Source: Lachnospiraceae bacterium
GTDB lineage: Bacteria; Bacillota; Clostridia; Lachnospirales; Lachnospiraceae
Direction of reading: 5' to 3'
Assembly (NCBI GenBank): GCA_021202715.1
Contig: JAJQCL010000192.1
Coordinates: 1 to 34,636, forward strand
DNA length: 34,636 bases
Shown here: one piece after another, positions 3,160 to 29,655 of the stretch
Layout of the letters: each line of letters begins with the position of its first letter
How positions within the stretch are numbered: position 1 is the first letter of the stretch
The notes under the pieces: model-generated
Told to the model about the DNA's origin: nothing
Seen by the model: only the letters and a program-made list of their open reading frames with translations
Databases searched by the model: none
Translations under genes and position numbers: made by a program

Positions 3160-3882
3160 TTACAGGTTCTTCCGGTACATCTCCTCCACCGCCTGCTGCG
3201 TCCTCGCGGGGAGCTCTCTCTTGGCGGCGCGGTCCAGCGTGGCCGTCTCGATGGGAGCGCCGAATTCGATAGTGACGGCGTGGGGATGAATCCAGGGGAA
3301 ATGTTTCTCCAGAACATCGTCCGTATAGGTGAAGGCCACCGGGATGATCGGGCATCCGGCTTTTTCCGCGATCTTGAAGCTGCCCTCCTTAAAGGGAAGC
3401 AGCTCCTCGCCGTGATTGCGCGTCCCCTCCGGGCAGATCCAGATGGAGATGCCGTTTTTGATCTGGTCGATGGCGGCGAGGATGGTCTTCATGCCTTCCC
3501 GCATGTTCTCACGGTCCAGGAAGAGGCAGTGAAGGCGGACCATCCAGTGGGAGAGCAGAGGAATCTTGAGGAACTCTTTCTTGGCAACAAAACCGCAGAG
3601 CCCCTTCACCTGGCAGTAGCCGATGATGATATCGAAATAACTGCGGTGGTTGCTGACGTAGAGTACCGGGCGGTCGTCGGGGATATTCTCCCGGCCGATC
3701 ACCGTGAGCTGAATCCCGGAGAACCACTGGACGCCCCGGAGGATGAACTGGACGGCGGCGAGGCTGCTGCGATCCTTCAGGGATGGATTGAATTTCCCGA
3801 TGATCCACTCGATGAACAGCAGCGGGATGCCTACGGGCACCAGAAAGAGGATGACAAGGGTCAGAGACAGGACGGTTCTCAT
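3160..3882 (-). CDS. plsC: 1-acyl-sn-glycerol-3-phosphate acyltransferase (lysophospholipid acyltransferase family)
   Basis: 240 aa with an N-terminal TM helix, the HX4D acyltransferase motif (NHRSYFD) and a PEGTR motif. Its start codon overlaps the pncB stop (ATGA at 3879-3882). The RBS gaggagg lies inside the pncB 3' end. Confidence 0.8.
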   Translation of the reverse strand: MRTVLSLTLVILFLVPVGIPLLFIEWIIGKFNPSLKDRSSLAAVQFILRGVQWFSGIQLTVIGRENIPDDRPVLYVSNHRSYFDIIIGYCQVKGLCGFVAKKEFLKIPLLSHWMVRLHCLFLDRENMREGMKTILAAIDQIKNGISIWICPEGTRNHGEELLPFKEGSFKIAEKAGCPIIPVAFTYTDDVLEKHFPWIHPHAVTIEFGAPIETATLDRAAKRELPARTQQAVEEMYRKNL

Positions 3883-5351
3883 TGATCAGCCTCCTCGTTG
3901 ATCTCGTTCAGGTTGTCCAGCAACTGATACTTCATGTCAAACAGCTTCCGGGACAGATCGATGTAGACCTCATGAGGGTTGGCGAAACGCCGGGTCTCAT
4001 CCCACAGCGTATCCTGCTCTTTGCGGCAGATCTCGCGGATCTCCATGACGCTGGGGCTGGTGTAGACGCACTCGCCGTTCTTGAAAACAGGTTCCAGGAG
4101 CTTCCGCAGTGTGAAGGTGCCCGCGTCCAGATAGGTCTTCTTCCAGGTGTGGACCGGGTCGAAGATCATCAGGTTGTGGTCTTCGACGAAGATCTCGTCG
4201 TGGAGCGCCAGCAGATCGCCGATGATCTTGCCGGTGGATTTCTTATAAATACGGTAAATGATCTTATTTCCCGGGTTGGTGATCTTCTCCGAGTTCTCGG
4301 AGCGCTTGATCTTCGGCACGAAAGTGTCTGTTTTGCGGTCGTAGATGGCGGCCAGCTTGTACACGCCGCCGAAAGCCGGGCAGTCCTTGCTGGTGATCAG
4401 ATTGGTCCCCACACCCCAGGAGGTGATGGCGGCGTCCTGATCCTTCAGGCTGGCGATCAGATACTCGTCCAGGTCGCAGGAGGCAGAGATGACGGCGTCC
4501 GTGAAGCCCGCCTCATCCAGCATTTTCCGGGCCTCTTTGGAGAGATAGGCCAGGTCGCCGCTGTCCAGACGGATGCCATAGTAGCTGAGAGGAATGCCCG
4601 CGTCGCGCATTTCCTGGAAGACCTGAATGGCGTGGGGCACGCCGCTCTTTAGTGTGTTATAGGTATCAACCAGCAAAATGCAGGCCGAGGGATAGAGATG
4701 CGCGTAGGCACGGAAAGCCGTCAGCTCATCGTCGAAGCTCATGATCCAGCTGTGGGCGTGCGTGCCTTTGACAGGAATGTCGAATAGCTGCCCCGCCAGA
4801 ACGTTGCTGGTGCCGATGCAGCCTCCGATGACCGCGGCACGCGCGCCGTAGATGCCTGCATCAGGCCCCTGCGCCCGGCGCAGACCGAATTCCATGATGC
4901 CATCGCCTTCTGCCGCGTAGACAACGCGGGAGGCCTTGGTAGCGATCAGGCACTGGTGGTTCACGATGTTCAGCAAAGCTGGTTCCAGCAGCTGCGCTTC
5001 CATAACCGGTGCAACGACCTTGACCAGCGGCTCGTTGGGGAAGACCACGGTTCCCTCGGGAATCGCGTAGATATCGCCTGTGAAATGGAAATGTGCCAGA
5101 TAATCGAGGAAATCTTCGTGGAAAATGCCCAGAGACCGCAGGTACTCGATGTCTCCGTCGGTGAAGTGGAGGTTTTCGACATACTCGATGATCTGCGCAA
5201 GGCCTGCGCAGATCGCATAGCCGCTGCCGCTGGGATTGCTTCGGTAAAAGGCGTCAAAAACAACGGTTTCGTTAAATTTCTGCTCATAATAGCCCTGCAT
5301 CATCGTCAGTTCATACAGGTCGGTCAGCAGGGTCAGATTGCGTTTGCTCAT
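3879..5351 (-). CDS. pncB: Nicotinate phosphoribosyltransferase (NAD salvage)
   Basis: MSKRNLTLLTDLYELTMMQGYY... is the typical NAPRT N-terminus, and GTHAHSW is also present. I place the start at the ATG at 5351 (second Met of the listed ORF) because aaaggag sits 11 nt upstream. The 17-aa extension to 5402 runs into the repeat. Confidence 0.88.
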   Translation of the reverse strand: MSKRNLTLLTDLYELTMMQGYYEQKFNETVVFDAFYRSNPSGSGYAICAGLAQIIEYVENLHFTDGDIEYLRSLGIFHEDFLDYLAHFHFTGDIYAIPEGTVVFPNEPLVKVVAPVMEAQLLEPALLNIVNHQCLIATKASRVVYAAEGDGIMEFGLRRAQGPDAGIYGARAAVIGGCIGTSNVLAGQLFDIPVKGTHAHSWIMSFDDELTAFRAYAHLYPSACILLVDTYNTLKSGVPHAIQVFQEMRDAGIPLSYYGIRLDSGDLAYLSKEARKMLDEAGFTDAVISASCDLDEYLIASLKDQDAAITSWGVGTNLITSKDCPAFGGVYKLAAIYDRKTDTFVPKIKRSENSEKITNPGNKIIYRIYKKSTGKIIGDLLALHDEIFVEDHNLMIFDPVHTWKKTYLDAGTFTLRKLLEPVFKNGECVYTSPSVMEIREICRKEQDTLWDETRRFANPHEVYIDLSRKLFDMKYQLLDNLNEINEEADQ

Positions 5352-5400
5352 AAGATGGAGTTCTCCTTTGTGGGGCGGTGTGGATAACGGCACTGCCCGC

Positions 5401-5682
5401 ATGATGCTGGGTCATGAGTATTTTCGCATGAACGCGACCTCAAAACCTTCGGTTTTTCGGTGTTCGTTTGCACTCACATAGCTCCTGGAGCATTTATCTG
5501 CATGCAAGCATGCGCTAAATGCTCTGCGTCACTGCGTTCATGGTGCTGTGTCATGAGTATTTTCGCATGAACGCATACCTCAAAACCTTCGGTTTTTCGG
5601 TGTTCGTTTGCACTCACATAGCTCCTGGAGCATTTATCTGCATGCAAGCATGCGCTAAATGCTCTGCGTCACTGCGTTCATG
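5401..5682. repeat. Tandem direct repeat, two units of 139-140 bp, each containing a closed inverted-repeat domain
   Basis: 5441-5540 is identical to 5581-5680 (100/100). The first ~40 nt of each unit differ by 3 substitutions and 1 indel. Each unit is closed by catgaacgc(a)/(t)gcgttcatg (5427-5435 with 5534-5542; 5566-5575 with 5673-5682). Each also carries an inner 9-bp palindrome gagcattta/taaatgctc (unit 1: 5488-5496 with 5516-5524). Confidence 0.9.
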
Positions 5683-5695
5683 CTTATGCGTTCAT

Positions 5696-5723
5696 ATTAT
5701 ACCACGATTTTTTTTCCGCACAA
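5696..5723 (-). promoter_or_regulatory. Candidate sigma-A promoter with extended -10, reading toward pncB through the tandem repeat
   Basis: The minus strand reads ttgtgc-16 nt-tataat (-35 at 5718-5723, -10 at 5696-5701), with tgg immediately upstream of the -10 (TGnTATAAT). No other good promoter was seen between here and the pncB start. Confidence 0.5.
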
Positions 5724-5812
5724 CCGGTTTATGCGGGATTTCGGCAGAGAGATTTACAGGTGACAAGACAAATTCAGCTTTTCAGATATGTACGATATCG
5801 GGGGCGAAAGTC

Positions 5813-6319
5813 TTATTTCGCCCGTGCTGCAAACATATCTTCAAGAAACTGCAGCCCGGTGGCTGTGCAGAAGATGTGTTCCCGCGCCGCCGCGATCGCA
5901 TGCGCATCGGATGAACTTTCGTAGAGATTCACCAGAAAATCCGCCTCGACCAGGATCTGATAATCCATCCCATCGATGTTCTTATAGGTATGGTGATGTC
6001 CGATCAGATATTTGACCCTCTCGATCTCCTCCTCGGAATATCCGCCGAGCTCACGGAGCAGCTTCTCCGCCTCGGCCGGGCCCTCGATCTCCTGGTAATG
6101 ACCCGAACTGGAGCCGTATTTTTCTTCGCTCACATGGATGCCGATGTCGTGCAGGATGGCGGCTGTTTCCAGAGTGTGCTGTGTCTTCTCATCAAGCCCT
6201 TCCAGAATACCGATCGCGGCAGCCAGATCATGGACCTTTACAAAATGCTGAATGCGCGGCGTATCCCCGCGATCGTAACGGATCATGGCGGCCATCAGGG
6301 CGGCGGTTTGTCTATCCAT
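5813..6319 (-). CDS. HD-domain metal-dependent phosphohydrolase
   Basis: An HD signature (AAILHDIGIH) and a downstream GHHHTY are present. I prefer the start at the internal Met (MDRQTAAL, ATG at 6319) with the aaggaa/ggaaagg RBS-like sequence upstream. The 15-aa extension has no RBS. Confidence 0.72.
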   Translation of the reverse strand: MDRQTAALMAAMIRYDRGDTPRIQHFVKVHDLAAAIGILEGLDEKTQHTLETAAILHDIGIHVSEEKYGSSSGHYQEIEGPAEAEKLLRELGGYSEEEIERVKYLIGHHHTYKNIDGMDYQILVEADFLVNLYESSSDAHAIAAAREHIFCTATGLQFLEDMFAARAK

Positions 6320-6428
6320 ATGTTCTGGTTCCTTTCCCCGAAATATATTTGCATCATAGCACATTTCCGTTCAAAAGGGAACCGGCGAACGTCCCGGAAC
6401 ATAGAATAGAAGAAAACGGGAATTCGGT

Positions 6429-7571
6429 ATGGCAGTCTATGTGGTAAAAGCGGACGATTCCGTCGAGACGATCGCCGCTGCGGCGGGTGTTTCGGTGGAA
6501 CAGCTTGTCTCGGAAAATCAGATTCCGTATCCTTATCGCCTGGCGATCGGCCAGGCTCTTTATCTTCCGGCGGAAATGACCGTGCCCGGACGGGAAATCA
6601 ATACAAATGGTTACGCGTATCCCTTTATTGGAAATTATGTACTGCGGCGGACTCTTCCGTATCTGTCATCTTTGTCCGTTTTTTCCTACGGGTTTACCAC
6701 GGCGGGTGAGCTGGTGCCGCCGCGGCTTCCCGATGTGTGGATGATTCAGGCTGCGGAAGAGTATGGGACAGAGGCCATTCTGACGCTGACTCCTCTGGAT
6801 GAGGCCGGGCAGTTTAATAACTATCTGATTCATGCGGTGGTACAGAATCCGGAATCCCGGCGGTCCCTGGAGGAGAATCTCCTGGCGGAGGTTCGGGAGA
6901 AGGGGTATGCGGGCGTGGATGTGGATTTCGAATACATTCTGGCGGAGGATCGGGACGCTTTTTCCCTGTTTGTGAAGGAACTGACAGAGGCGATGCATGG
7001 GGAGGGACGTACCGTGTCGGTGGCGCTCGCGCCCAAGACCTCCGCGAATCAGCCGGGGCTCCTCTATGAGGGGAAGGACTATGCGGCTCTGGGTGCGGCG
7101 GCGGACCGTGTTCTGCTCATGACCTACGAGTGGGGCTACAAGTACAGCGAGCCCATGGCCGTGGCGCCTTTGCCGCAGGTTCGTCAGGTTGTGGAATATG
7201 CCGTCACGGAGATCGATCCGGCGAAGATTTTGCTGGGAATGCCCAATTACGGATATGACTGGCCGCTGCCCTATGTCCCGGGAGAGACGGCGGCACGGAC
7301 GATCGGGAATGTGGAGGCGGTGCAGATCGCCATCGAAAATGGGGCTGAGATTCGCTTTGACGAGACGGCGCAGTCGCCCTGGTTTTCCTATGAGAGCGGT
7401 GGAATCGCTCATGAGGTCTGGTTCGAGGATGTCCGCAGCGTTCAGGCGAAATGTGACCTGATCCGCGCTTCCTCTCTGCGGGGCGCCGGTATCTGGCAGA
7501 TTAACCAGCTTTTTCTGGCCGGATGGCTCCAGCTCGAAGAGAACTTTCACGTGTTGAGGAAAAAACAGTAG
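6429..7571 (+). CDS. LysM domain + glycoside hydrolase family 18 protein (YaaH/SleL-like peptidoglycan/cortex hydrolase)
   Basis: An N-terminal LysM is present (YVVKADDSVETIAAAAGVSVEQLVSENQI...LAIGQALYLP). The GH18 catalytic motif DxDxE is seen as GVDVDFEYI. The architecture matches Bacillus YaaH/SleL apart from having a single LysM. Confidence 0.8.
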   Translation: MAVYVVKADDSVETIAAAAGVSVEQLVSENQIPYPYRLAIGQALYLPAEMTVPGREINTNGYAYPFIGNYVLRRTLPYLSSLSVFSYGFTTAGELVPPRLPDVWMIQAAEEYGTEAILTLTPLDEAGQFNNYLIHAVVQNPESRRSLEENLLAEVREKGYAGVDVDFEYILAEDRDAFSLFVKELTEAMHGEGRTVSVALAPKTSANQPGLLYEGKDYAALGAAADRVLLMTYEWGYKYSEPMAVAPLPQVRQVVEYAVTEIDPAKILLGMPNYGYDWPLPYVPGETAARTIGNVEAVQIAIENGAEIRFDETAQSPWFSYESGGIAHEVWFEDVRSVQAKCDLIRASSLRGAGIWQINQLFLAGWLQLEENFHVLRKKQ

Positions 7572-29091: not shown

Positions 29092-29655
29092 ATGTCAATG
29101 ATCAACAAGGAAATTGCAGATTTTTCCGTGCAGGCGTTTCAGGACAATGCATTCAGGACGGTGACCCGGGCAGATGTGCTGGGGAAATGGAGTGTGTTTT
29201 TCTTTTATCCGGCGGATTTCACCTTTGTGTGCCCGACGGAGCTTGAGGATCTGGCGGAGAAGTATGAGGCCTTTCAGGCGGCGGGGTGCGAGATCTATTC
29301 CGTCTCCTGCGATTCGCATTTCGTTCATAAGGCCTGGCATGACGCTTCTGAGCGGATCAAGAAGATTCGTTACCCGATGCTGGCGGATCCGACGCACGCG
29401 CTGGCACGGGATTTCGATGTGCTGATCGAGGCGGACGGCATGGCGGAGCGGGGCAGCTTCATCGTGAATCCAGAAGGGCGGATCGTGGCCTATGAGGTGA
29501 ATGCAGGCAACATCGGGCGTAATGCGGAGGAGCTGTTCCGCCGTTTGCAGGCCAGTCAGTTCGTGGCAGCGCACGGCGATGAGGTCTGCCCGGCGAAGTG
29601 GCAGCCCGGCGCCGAAACATTGAAGCCCAGCCTGGATCTGGTGGGGCAGCTGTAA
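29092..29655 (+). CDS. ahpC: Peroxiredoxin, typical 2-Cys (alkyl hydroperoxide reductase subunit C)
   Basis: MSMINKEIADF...WSVFFFYPADFTFVCPTEL carries the peroxidatic Cys, and the C-terminal EVCPAKW carries the resolving Cys. The ATG at 29092 has aaggagg 8 nt upstream, so the listed 24-aa extension is rejected. Confidence 0.9.
   Translation: MSMINKEIADFSVQAFQDNAFRTVTRADVLGKWSVFFFYPADFTFVCPTELEDLAEKYEAFQAAGCEIYSVSCDSHFVHKAWHDASERIKKIRYPMLADPTHALARDFDVLIEADGMAERGSFIVNPEGRIVAYEVNAGNIGRNAEELFRRLQASQFVAAHGDEVCPAKWQPGAETLKPSLDLVGQL

Follow-up and report, generated by a model that had tools for sequence, protein, structure and literature searches.

The two near-identical units in the leader of pncB, in a stretch of Lachnospiraceae DNA of 34,636 nucleotides (the window), are very probably tandem copies of a co-transcribed, structured intergenic repeat of the MITE/REP/bcr1-like kind, which was inserted in this lineage, then duplicated, and does not sense NAD (probability about 0.8). 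In the proposed sequence of events, one copy would have entered the pncB 5' UTR directly after the -10 box, displacing some 12-34 nt of native leader sequence. Recombination between the start of the unit and a similar stretch immediately downstream would then probably have produced the head-to-tail duplication. The element would be co-transcribed with pncB from the native promoter, and its RNA is predicted to have three stems: a helix that closes the unit (P1), a hairpin with the cap GCAUG-CUUG-CAUGC (P2), and a small hairpin (P3) with a GAA loop and tandem G-A pairs on its flanks. NAD metabolites would not be sensed by it. Its spread may have been helped by a trans-acting factor recognising the conserved apex, and its effect at pncB may be at most generic, in that a stable structure set back some 6-8 nt from the predicted 5' end could alter mRNA stability or translation.

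Two tandem units occupy the leader of pncB

The gene downstream of the units was confirmed by its Pfam domains as a nicotinate phosphoribosyltransferase gene, as the initial annotation had proposed. Its true start is the ATG at 5351-5349, which gives a product of 490 aa, as in all homologs. The exact PncB sequence of the window had no database record, and the comparison was built on homologs. The promoter claimed upstream of the units held up in its extended -10, which is present and kept in relatives, but the consensus scan did not call the site at 5696-5723 because its -35 is weak. Since the promoter is present and conserved in relatives, transcription from it through the units is plausible. 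A NiaR-like box, also conserved in relatives, lies upstream of pncB.

The units, of 140 and 139 nt, occupy positions 5404-5682 of the minus strand and separate this promoter from the pncB RBS. Tandem Repeats Finder reported 5400-5682 with a period of 140, 2.0 copies, 97% matches and a score of 536. This and the pairwise alignment of unit 1 (5543-5682) with unit 2 (5404-5542) bore out the tandem arrangement described before; the identical run measured 106 nt, where 100 identical nucleotides per unit had been counted. The differences had been placed at or just outside the closing stem. One indel and one substitution are indeed at the junction with the 3' arm of P1, but two further substitutions sit in the spacer. 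The array consists of a leader, two repeats of core, 10-nt tail and 13-nt spacer, and the degenerate start of a third copy (Table 1), which possibly provided the microhomology behind the duplication. Neither blastn nor a covariance model with filters off detected copies in the window beyond the two leader units. The model (R1) was built from the units and close homologs, the homologs being from other organisms, and with the scores that they obtained (Table 1) the units are not chance matches.

In the MFE fold, each unit formed a stem-closed three-way junction. The closing stem, described previously as 9-10 bp, was found with 11 bp in unit 1 (GCATGAACGCA/TGCGTTCATGC, 5565-5575 with 5673-5683) and with 9 bp in unit 2 (CATGAACGC/GCGTTCATG, 5427-5435 with 5534-5542). 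Both enclosed hairpins were likewise recovered in both units, namely the inner hairpin GAGCATTTA-19 nt-TAAATGCTC and the small AAAACC-GAA-GGUUUU hairpin, and the extra stem arm reported at 5686-5693 was found as ATGAACGCATA at 5685-5695. The whole leader had thermodynamic z-scores of -4.9 (sense strand) and -4.7 (antisense strand), which were uninformative on strand and function. Two small ORFs over the units, of 57 and 41 aa, were rejected because the covariation pattern keeps pairing rather than coding.

Table 1. Features of the pncB locus and its leader array in the window.
Feature	Position	Strand	Basis
pncB, nicotinate phosphoribosyltransferase	3879..5351	-	Pfam NAPRTase_N, NAPRTase, NAPRTase_C
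pncB RBS AAAGGAGAA (5361-5369) and start codon ATG (5349-5351)	5349..5369	-	Kept in all relatives; 490-aa product matches homologs
Lineage-specific segment, 317 nt, holding the complete array; 34 nt in related genomes instead	5379..5695	-	blastn and alignment
Degenerate third-copy start CATGCGGGCAGTGCCG, 12/16 bases as in the unit start	5388..5403	-	Direct repeat D2, 5388-5435 / 5527-5574, 88%
Unit 2 tail and spacer CATGACCCAGCAT	5404..5426	-	Sequence, pairwise alignment
Unit 2 core, architecture as unit 1, P1 of 9 bp	5427..5542	-	R1 match 5411-5549, 109 bits, E 1e-31; inverted repeats I6, I7
Unit 2 P3 hairpin AAAACC-GAA-GGUUUU	5442..5456	-	Identical to unit 1
Unit 2 P2 apex GCGCAUG-CUUG-CAUGCAG	5498..5515	-	Identical to unit 1
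Unit 1 tail CGAAAATACT and spacer CATGACACAGCAC (the next copy's leader, degenerate)	5543..5565	-	Tail kept in L099; alignment
Unit 1 core: closing stem P1, hairpin P2, junction, hairpin P3	5566..5682	-	MFE fold; R1 match 5550-5697, 130 bits, E 4e-38
Unit 1 P3 hairpin AAAACC-GAA-GGUUUU, CGA/GAG flanks	5582..5596	-	Sequence; stem covaries in homologs
Unit 1 P2 apex GCGCAUG-CUUG-CAUGCAG, hallmark of Clostridiales-1	5638..5655	-	Match to RF01699 consensus hairpin; 18-mer recovers family members in genome contigs
Element 5' leader ATGAACGCATAAG, family motif ..TGAGCGATAAG; contains the extra stem arm	5683..5695	-	Aligns with the leaders of L099, L025, L045 and L078; inverted repeat I2
Native pncB promoter: -35-like TTGTGC (5718-5723), 16-nt spacer, extended -10 TGGTATAAT (5696-5704)	5696..5723	-	Sequence; conserved in relatives that lack the units; putative function

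The array is absent from the pncB leaders of related species

Nine related pncB loci, with 84-98% protein identity, had the same promoter and RBS and kept the NiaR-like box, with 34 nt in place of the 317 nt of the window. The loci compared come from sister species rather than from strains, at about 91% DNA identity: L001-L006 share 97-98% protein and 87-93% DNA identity with the window pncB locus, and L095-L098 share 84-86% protein identity with the window pncB. In blastn, homology with L001, L005 and L006 ended at 5378 and restarted at 5696, and a covariance-model search did not find the element in L001, L005, L006, L095, L097 and L098. These alignments show that the 317-nt segment is lineage-specific. 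The pattern of presence and absence could formally also be produced by repeated loss instead of gain.

The units are a short variant of the Clostridiales-1 motif

At the gathering cut-off, Rfam had no match in the whole window. The best match below it was Clostridiales-1 (RF01699) at 5506-5685 on the minus strand, with 33.3 bits (E 1.7e-5; gathering cut-off 48 bits), and this alignment takes part of unit 2 to close P1. When all 4227 Rfam families were run on 5250-5900 with cmscan at E<=10, only Clostridiales-1, mir-998 and RAGATH-8 were reported.

The relation to Clostridiales-1 was supported by graded intermediates. Copies elsewhere with the architecture of the window units scored 38.3-49.2 bits on RF01699, and four-stem copies scored 96-125 bits. 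Reciprocally, R1 matched four-stem copies at E 1e-7 to 1e-9 and gave 33-41 bits on the RF01699 members L064, L047 and L032. Both kinds share their occurrence in Clostridiales of the gut, a closing stem, a long hairpin capped by the conserved GCAUG-CUUG-CAUGC apex, to which both window units match exactly, and a second hairpin with G-A-rich internal loops on its flanks. The window units differ in having three stems (P1, P2 and the inner P3) instead of four. They lack both the outer P3 and the hairpin at the 3' side (P4), the third hairpin of RF01699 is aligned to a 36-nt insertion, and the lower P2 helix is degenerate. Taken by these matches, the units are a three-stem, truncated variant of Clostridiales-1 and belong to that family in the broad sense.

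Rfam types RF01699 as "Gene; sRNA". Weinberg et al. 2010 (PMC2864571) judged the motif not to be cis-regulatory and its function to be unknown, and the part of their text considered here has no description of mobility, tandem arrays or stop-codon-adjacent placement.

Covariation preserves the stems of the family

A 7-sequence seed with a structure set by hand was used for the alignment; MAFFT on 13 diverse copies misaligned the stems. In 29 family sequences, 92.3% of the cells were paired, versus 59.2% for shuffled and 24-43% for slid controls, and these pairing counts are inflated because the alignment was fitted to the structure of the model. Double changes occurred in 43 of the 46 pairs. 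The sense strand had 46 G-U against 10 A-C combinations (p ~1e-6). Most family sequences were retrieved via the exact 18-mer of the apex, so the conservation of the apex is partly ascertainment. The alignment shows structural covariation in the family, and we infer that the conserved structure acts in RNA.

All nine pairs of P1 had double changes, with arm sequences that differ between copies and pairing that is kept. The 10-bp terminal inverted repeats named in the initial annotation are thus this closing helix. An example is L099, a single copy about 80% identical to the units, found in an unrelated metagenome between hflX and an unrelated gene. By compensatory changes relative to the units, its P1 has CACGAACGC/GCGTTCGTG in place of CATGAACGC/GCGTTCATG, and its P3 has AAAATGC/GCATTTT in place of AAAACC/GGTTTT. 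L099 is flanked by an 11-nt direct repeat, TGTGATAACAT, which may be a remnant leader.

Dispersed copies are found in unrelated transcription units and are unstable

L007-L094 (88 of the 94 loci) were fetched by the apex 18-mer, for which about 17 chance matches are expected in 596 Gb. Matches in Burkholderia, Methanoperedens and similar organisms were set aside as unrelated; coding-like flanks were common to them. Among L001-L094, blastn with the unit gave only 20-24-nt apex matches and no near-identical sibling in species-representative genomes. L099 was the one other copy found of the window's own subtype, and no near-identical copy beyond the two units was found in the 34.6 kb of host DNA in the window. 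The search of viral contigs returned one irrelevant 1.5-kb match and no phage link.

In the wider family, the metagenome-assembled genome (MAG) UMGS96 had at least 14 RF01699 matches in 10 loci, several of them at contig ends or in tandem, and RUG381 and P6B14 had 2 or 3 copies each. The copies at contig ends indicate that these repeats break MAG assemblies. Copies were found in the pheS-pheT, pgk-tpiA and rpsL-rpsG spacers and beside hflX, and tpiA, gap, rpsG, pheT, rnr, nth, ribD, panD and trpB, all unrelated to NAD, were among the neighbouring genes. Many copies span the distance between the preceding stop codon and the next RBS in housekeeping operons, and many come directly after terminator T-runs or stop codons. 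Of the short variants, 17-18 of 19 were in sense orientation relative to the downstream gene, in a curated subset on which the orientation counts rest, since a crude greedy ORF caller misjudged some genes. The copy in L016 was antisense to both neighbours. A promoter carried by the element was rejected, as no consistent -10/-35 was seen upstream of the copies.

One copy was present, decayed or absent among strains of Roseburia inulinivorans. Contigs with identical TpiA had pgk-tpiA spacers of 18 nt (empty), 46 nt (holding a 3' remnant), 146 nt (with the apex deleted), 158-160 nt (full) and 225 nt. Presence/absence polymorphism and multi-copy dispersal were thus found at the level of the family, and the repeat family is widespread in gut Lachnospiraceae, multi-copy, often tandem, and easily gained and lost. 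The orphan motif of 2010 is now tied to a shorter, three-stem variant below the Rfam cut-off, to insertion/deletion polymorphism both inside gut species and between close relatives among them, and to tandem arrays and a characteristic placement between a stop codon or promoter and the next RBS.

Comparison with known intergenic repeats

A MITE-like inserted element had been one of two readings offered at first. Its inserted character stands, in the lineage-specific 317-nt segment and the dispersed, multi-copy, often tandem family, but transposase-type terminal inverted repeats do not. Classical MITEs have conserved terminal inverted repeats and target-site duplications, whereas the units are closed by a covarying helix, and no target-site duplication was seen at either the window or the Roseburia site. 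The search brought up no terminal inverted repeat that is conserved, and no partner transposase among the scanned ORFs of the window.

The family resembles REP and bcr1 elements, being intergenic, located inside transcription units, and subject to compensatory changes that preserve structure. REP elements can affect mRNA stability. The bcr1 repeats (PMC3184786; expression in PMC3446304) are likewise intergenic repeats of about 150 nt whose distribution is not conserved between related genomes, are transcribed in UTRs and intercistronic regions, and keep their RNA structure by compensatory changes. They differ in their hosts, the Bacillus cereus group, share no sequence similarity with the units, and have 5-bp direct repeats, whereas the short variant here was without target duplication. 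REP/BIME, ERIC, Correia (NEMIS), RUP and BOX elements are also multi-copy, intergenic and co-transcribed, with stable hairpins and tandem clusters, and can alter the expression of neighbouring genes (PMC3184786); REPs are about 35 nt, unlike the units here. Repeats such as those described here may influence how housekeeping operons are expressed in abundant bacteria of the gut.

Alternative explanations of the units

The family might instead be a generic, host-beneficial cis-acting RNA rather than a selfish or neutral repeat. It could mark a site of processing in intercistronic regions or 5' UTRs, stabilise mRNA, or provide a platform to which an RNA-binding protein attaches, with the pncB copies regulating mRNA fate. 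A structure close to the 5' end is a geometry known to stabilise Firmicute mRNAs, and in the window some 6-8 nt separate P1 from the predicted 5' end. The strong covariation with its G-U asymmetry on the sense strand, the conserved apex sequence, the sense orientation of the short variants and the many copies that span the interval from stop codon to next RBS in housekeeping operons would also fit such a role. We nevertheless regard it as unlikely. Between strains whose flanking proteins are identical, copies have been gained, lost or shortened by internal deletion, and at the pncB of sister species they are absent, so each individual copy is dispensable. The contexts are heterogeneous, with at least one copy (L016) antisense to both neighbours, and the lower P2 and outer P3 helices of the window units are lost or degenerate compared with better-conserved copies, which looks like decay.

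Similarly doubtful is a REP/RAYT-like or IS200/IS605-derived (PATE-like) element, in which a Y1 transposase would recognise the apex in single-stranded DNA and the RNA fold would be incidental. The three-way junction, the tandem G-A motifs and the CUUG tetraloop are typical of RNA, and a non-systematic inspection showed no TnpA, RAYT or TnpB genes beside the copies. The sense bias relative to genes fits RNA, but a replication-strand bias could give it too. Since DNA hairpins tolerate G-T wobbles too, the asymmetry between strands is compatible with single-stranded DNA. The four-stem copies of UMGS96, which have TTTAC at both ends, fit this explanation in their boundaries: they always follow ...TTTAC, end in a further hairpin and ...GTTTAC, lack terminal inverted repeats, and often directly adjoin one another or the T-run of a terminator. 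The absence of target duplication at the Roseburia and window sites points the same way.

Slightly less probable than either is that the Clostridiales-1 superfamily, this three-stem variant included, is a distinct class of mobile structured element in gut Lachnospiraceae, which spreads without terminal inverted repeats or target duplications, lands in transcribed spacers, and uses the CAUG-CUUG-CAUG hairpin as a handle for a dedicated protein or RNP acting in mobility, in operon mRNA processing, or in both. If so, the tandem pair at pncB would be a recent, datable event of insertion and duplication, and the typical landing site would be after a stop codon or promoter, just before the next RBS.

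It is very unlikely that the units are independent genes of trans-acting small RNAs located upstream of pncB by accident, even though RF01699 is classed in Rfam as sRNA and Weinberg et al. judged it not cis-regulatory. The units carry neither a promoter nor a terminator and sit between the conserved pncB promoter and RBS, and other copies fill gaps from stop codon to RBS in operons, where there is no room for separate promoters.

The other reading offered at first, a duplicated cis-regulatory RNA in which tandem aptamers sense a metabolite of the NAD pathway and control pncB, can practically be dismissed, although the units have a compact multi-stem fold on the sense strand in the interval from promoter to RBS of a NAD salvage gene, and the class I NAD+ riboswitch is known to occur with its domains in tandem. 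The units are missing from all nine related pncB leaders examined, and their homologs have no association with NAD genes and adjoin unrelated ones, including sites inside the pheST, pgk-tpiA and rpsL-rpsG operons. No riboswitch family, including the nadA (class I) and pnuC (class II) NAD+ motifs, which the initial annotation had also been unable to match, was found in the cmscan of 5250-5900. The near identity of the units points to a recent duplication, not to a conserved tandem design. A self-cleaving ribozyme, a T-box, a retron and a type III antitoxin repeat were rejected as well, with no Rfam support and with their core motifs absent. With the inserted, duplicated repeat as the preferred reading, a false riboswitch lead at pncB would be removed and its long leader would be an accident of repeat insertion; repeats of this kind can pass for riboswitches. 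The conserved NiaR-type operator upstream already accounts for niacin control, and control of pncB most likely stays with it.

Tandem units in the pncB leader

Tandem Repeats Finder reported a repeat of period 140 at 5400-5682 of the window (2.0 copies, 97% matches, score 536), confirming that tandem, near-identical units lie in the leader of pncB, whose product is NAPRTase. Both units are carried on the minus strand, the sense strand of pncB. Pairwise alignment of unit 1 and unit 2 gave an unbroken identity of 106 nt; one indel and one substitution separate them immediately 5ʹ of the closing-stem 3ʹ arm, and the spacer holds two further substitutions.

The stem-closed multi-stem domain proposed for each unit in the initial annotation was borne out. 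A repeat finder detected the closing stems (P1; 11 bp long in unit 1, 9 bp in unit 2), 9-bp hairpin arms placed 19 nt apart, and a further stem arm at 5685-5695, where a partial arm had been noticed near 5686-5693. AAAACC-GAA-GGTTTT was seen in the unit sequence, and the predicted fold of each unit is a three-way junction closed by the stem. The whole leader folded more stably than shuffled sequences whichever strand was taken (z = -4.9 for the sense and -4.7 for the antisense strand); folding energy alone is uninformative on its strand or function. A scan of the unit for terminator-like hairpins with a T-run behind them found none. The array end CATGCGGGCAGTGCCG is similar also to the native TTTGCGGGCGGCAGCC of pncB relatives. 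Tandem Repeats Finder also listed a weak repeat of period 16 nt elsewhere in the window, at 29563-29611 (2.9 tandem copies with 73% matches).

An in-frame ATG at 5402-5400, within the third-copy remnant, gives a 507-aa ORF (window 5349-5402). We rejected this ORF as an artefactual extension, since homologs place the start at 5351, and automatic annotation might wrongly take the upstream ATG as the pncB start.

Features of the pncB leader in window coordinates
Feature	Position	Strand	Remark
Candidate NiaR-type operator, AATTTGTCTTGTCACCTGTAAA	5753-5774	minus	Upstream of promoter; kept in all related pncB loci
Plausible pncB promoter: TTGTGC, 16-nt spacer, TGGTATAAT	5696-5723	minus	Block kept in relatives
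Array 5ʹ leader, ATGAACGCATAAG	5683-5695	minus	Abuts -10 box
Unit 1	5543-5682	minus	
Unit 2	5404-5542	minus	
Two repeats: core of 117/116 nt, tail CGAAAATACT, 13-nt spacer	between leader and CATGCGGGCAGTGCCG	minus	
Array end, CATGCGGGCAGTGCCG	5388-5403	minus	Unit start matched at 12/16 positions
pncB start codon, ATG	5351-5349	minus	Agrees with 490-aa homologs

pncB leaders of related genomes

The pncB loci of three Lachnospiraceae MAGs and three Logan assemblies (L001-L006; pncB protein identity 97-98%) retain the upstream box, promoter, RBS and start codon of the window pncB. Beyond TATAAT their leader consists of 34 nt and then the RBS, without the units. The DNA identity of 87-93% (blastn) makes them sister species, not strains. 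Because their homology to the window ends at 5378 and restarts at 5696, the 317 nt at 5379-5695 are lineage specific. Three more distant pncB loci (L095, L097 and L098; 84-86% identity) likewise have short leaders without the unit, and our covariance model of the element, R1, had no match in the six pncB loci searched (L001, L005, L006, L095, L097 and L098). Judged from these sequences, the units are not a conserved feature of pncB leaders.

The GH18 and LysM gene of the window (6429-7571, plus strand), between an HD-domain gene and esterase genes, is absent from L001 and L006, which have only ~130 nt in place of the 6338-7556 interval. Between the genes for the acyltransferase and V-ATPase D, L001 in turn has an LRR/Big_2 gene of 6.3 kb that is missing from the window. 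The region is indel-rich between the sister species.

Kinship with Clostridiales-1

At gathering thresholds, Rfam had no match anywhere in the window. In a permissive search the sole meaningful match was Clostridiales-1 (RF01699). This match owes its 33.3 bits (E 1.7e-5; cut-off 48 bits) to the hairpin ..CGCAUGCUUGCAUGCAG.. and the one after it; no NAD riboswitch family matched the unit region at E<=10. In describing this motif, Weinberg et al. (PMC2864571) report a large four-stem structure, very common in human-gut sequences, for which covariation was shown and RNA is probable, and which they class as neither cis-regulatory nor riboswitch.

A scan of one genome per GTDB species with the 18-mer of the hairpin apex returned 88 loci; by an arithmetic estimate, ~17 hits would be expected by chance. 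Matches in Burkholderia, Methanoperedens and a few others were rejected as unrelated, with coding-like flanks common to them. In Burkholderia (L012, L015, L022, L033, L042, L050, L071, L083, L084 and others), GCGCATGCTTGCATGCAG occurs once per genome within highly conserved, apparently coding sequence that is not related to the element, a caution for searches by pattern alone.

The remaining loci were mainly from Lachnospiraceae or other Clostridia, and their copies were of two types. The first comprises four-stem RF01699 members of 96-125 bits; the MAG UMGS96 has at least 14 of these in ten loci, and several of them lie at the end of a contig or form tandem copies ~200 nt apart. The second is a shorter form below the Rfam cut-off with the architecture of the window units, in the order leader ..(TGA)GCGATAAG, P1, apex-bearing P2, GYGCAACGNGAACGA, P3 (a small hairpin, usually with a GAA loop), GAG and P1 3ʹ arm. 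With 38.3 to 49.2 bits against RF01699, the short forms bridge the window units and canonical members. Two helices of better-conserved short forms, the lower one of P2 and the outer one of P3, are missing from the window units, which look partly decayed or minimal.

Scanned with a 27-mer specific to the unit, metagenomes yielded one more copy, in a brushtail-possum gut assembly (L099, 2410-2559), single and flanked by hflX and an unrelated gene. It is ~80% identical to the unit by eye, with compensatory changes in P1 (U-A to C-G) and P3 (AAAACC/GGTTTT to AAAATGC/GCATTTT); in P2, a G-C pair has become G-U. R1, seeded with the two window units, L099 and four short forms, reached 130 and 109 bits on the window units and 116 bits on L099, and with filters off found no further match in the rest of the window. 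It gave 98 bits for a copy ascertained without the 18-mer (L055, 2805-2957), whose apex covaries (ACGCGUG-CUUG-CACGUAG), and 30-65 bits for many further copies, RF01699 members included. L055, from Lachnospiraceae bacterium P6B14, holds three short-variant copies or fragments in 8 kb (1612-1667, 2805-2957 and 4069-4211), between successive co-directional genes.

Clostridiales-1 is the nearest family by sequence and structure; a common apex, graded intermediates and reciprocal model matches speak for homology. The window units fall below its curated score and lack its four-stem architecture, and for both reasons we call them a three-stem variant rather than a member. The pncB units are a previously undescribed variant of a known, functionally orphan motif.

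Covariation and strand

Covariation favoured the stems: among the 29 best R1 matches, standard pairs filled 92.3% of cells (59.2% in column shuffles, 24-43% with slid partners) and two-sided changes occurred in 43 of 46 pairs, in an alignment fitted to the model structure whose sequences were mostly retrieved via the apex. G-U/U-G cells exceeded A-C/C-A cells (46 vs 10, p ~1e-6; 13 vs 5 for G-U vs A-C in the seed MAFFT alignment), indicating that selection acts on the helices of the sense strand. Such a pattern fits RNA, and is compatible too with a DNA intermediate that is single-stranded and strand-specific. In copies found without the 18-mer, conservation is highest in the apex core CAUG-CUUG-CAUG, yet this core varies too: its stem can read, for example, CGUG/CACG or GUGUG/CACAC, and its loop CCUG or CUGG.

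Genomic context of the short forms

The genes 3ʹ of short forms (tpiA, gap, rpsG, pheT, rnr, nth, ribD, panD, trpB, ABC transporters and others) are mutually unrelated and unrelated to NAD. The riboswitch reading, in which the duplicated units would control NAD salvage in cis, is refuted as far as the comparative data reach, by these neighbours, the unit-free leaders of relatives and the absence of an NAD riboswitch match.

Several copies lie between cistrons of housekeeping operons (pheS/pheT, pgk/tpiA, rpsL/rpsG, argS/next gene). In many of them the upstream stop codon falls within or just 5ʹ of the conserved leader, and 10-40 nt separate the 3ʹ end of the element from the next RBS. A TGA or TAG in or just before the leader ..TGAGCGATAAGG, which has stop codons in two frames, was seen at L025 6326, L045 7399, L078 4971, L055 2805 and 4069, and L024 1060; by inserting, the element may provide a new stop codon or take the place of an existing one. 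In a curated subset, 17-18 of 19 copies were sense to the downstream gene. A clear exception is the short variant at L016 3611-3755, antisense to both neighbours in a secE/nusG-like region upstream of an L10 leader. Many copies lie directly 3ʹ of terminator T-runs, and no recognisable promoter brought by the element was found in the sequences upstream of copies.

Gain, loss and proposed mobility

In Roseburia inulinivorans contigs encoding identical TpiA (L101-L110, ~1275-1500), the pgk-tpiA spacer is empty (18 nt), holds the 3ʹ end of the element alone (46 nt), an element with the apex deleted (146 nt), a complete element (158-160 nt; R1 29-41 bits), or a complete element together with a second copy of the pgk 3ʹ end (225 nt). 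Some alleles have the final pgk codon and stop altered, from ..NDK* to ..NDR*. No target-site duplication was visible there or at pncB.

The view that an inserted repeat occupies the leader was right in substance, given the lineage-specific 317 nt and a dispersed, often tandem family. Its strict MITE form was not borne out: classical MITEs have terminal inverted repeats of conserved sequence, which are missing here, and duplicated target sites, of which none was visible at pncB or in the Roseburia spacer. The four-stem copies of UMGS96 (L010, L023, L029, L051, L060, L065, L077, L081 and L082) run past the Rfam model ends; each is preceded by ...TTTAC and has a terminal extra hairpin (GTCTGCGTCAGCAGAC) followed by ATGTCCGTTTAC, and copies occur in abutting tandem, 3ʹ of terminator T-runs and at contig ends. 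These flanks suggest target-specific insertion without inverted repeats. A possible single-strand mechanism of the IS200/IS605 or REP/RAYT kind is suggested by the TTTAC flanks and 3ʹ hairpin, features of four-stem copies only. The nearest analogue in behaviour is bcr1 of the Bacillus cereus group, a structured intergenic repeat of ~155 nt that is transcribed, shows compensatory changes and is not conserved in distribution between related strains (PMC3184786); REP/BIME and Correia elements are further comparable systems.

Probable origin of the array and control of pncB

The array would have arisen by a single insertion directly 3ʹ of the -10 box and then a head-to-tail duplication via microhomology between CATGCGGGCAGTGCCG and the unit start; tandem copies are frequent in the family. 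Transcription is predicted to start ~6-8 nt 5ʹ of P1, which would place ~320 nt of stable structure before the unchanged RBS. The insertion most likely has either a generic effect, on how stable the mRNA is, how it is processed or how efficiently it is translated, or none, as the known behaviour of 5ʹ-proximal structures in part leads us to expect. REP, bcr and Correia elements also point this way (PMC3184786; PMC3446304). What stays new is the family's way of moving and what recognises the apex, rather than pncB regulation.

The promoter assigned to pncB in the initial annotation was not called by a consensus scan because its -35 is weak; it is plausible, although unproven, because the entire block is kept in related genomes. 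The window ORFs scanned included no niaR gene. A TGTCTTGTCACCTGTAA-like sequence (window 5753-5770) is common to all these pncB promoters, in the window and in relatives, and AATTTGTCTTGTCACCTGTAAA is likely, on sequence grounds, a niacin-repressor site. Its core TGTCTTGTCA is that of the type I NiaR operator of Fusobacterium nucleatum nadABC (PMC2330245), and since this published core is shared, pncB regulation is explained most economically by niacin control through a protein repressor.
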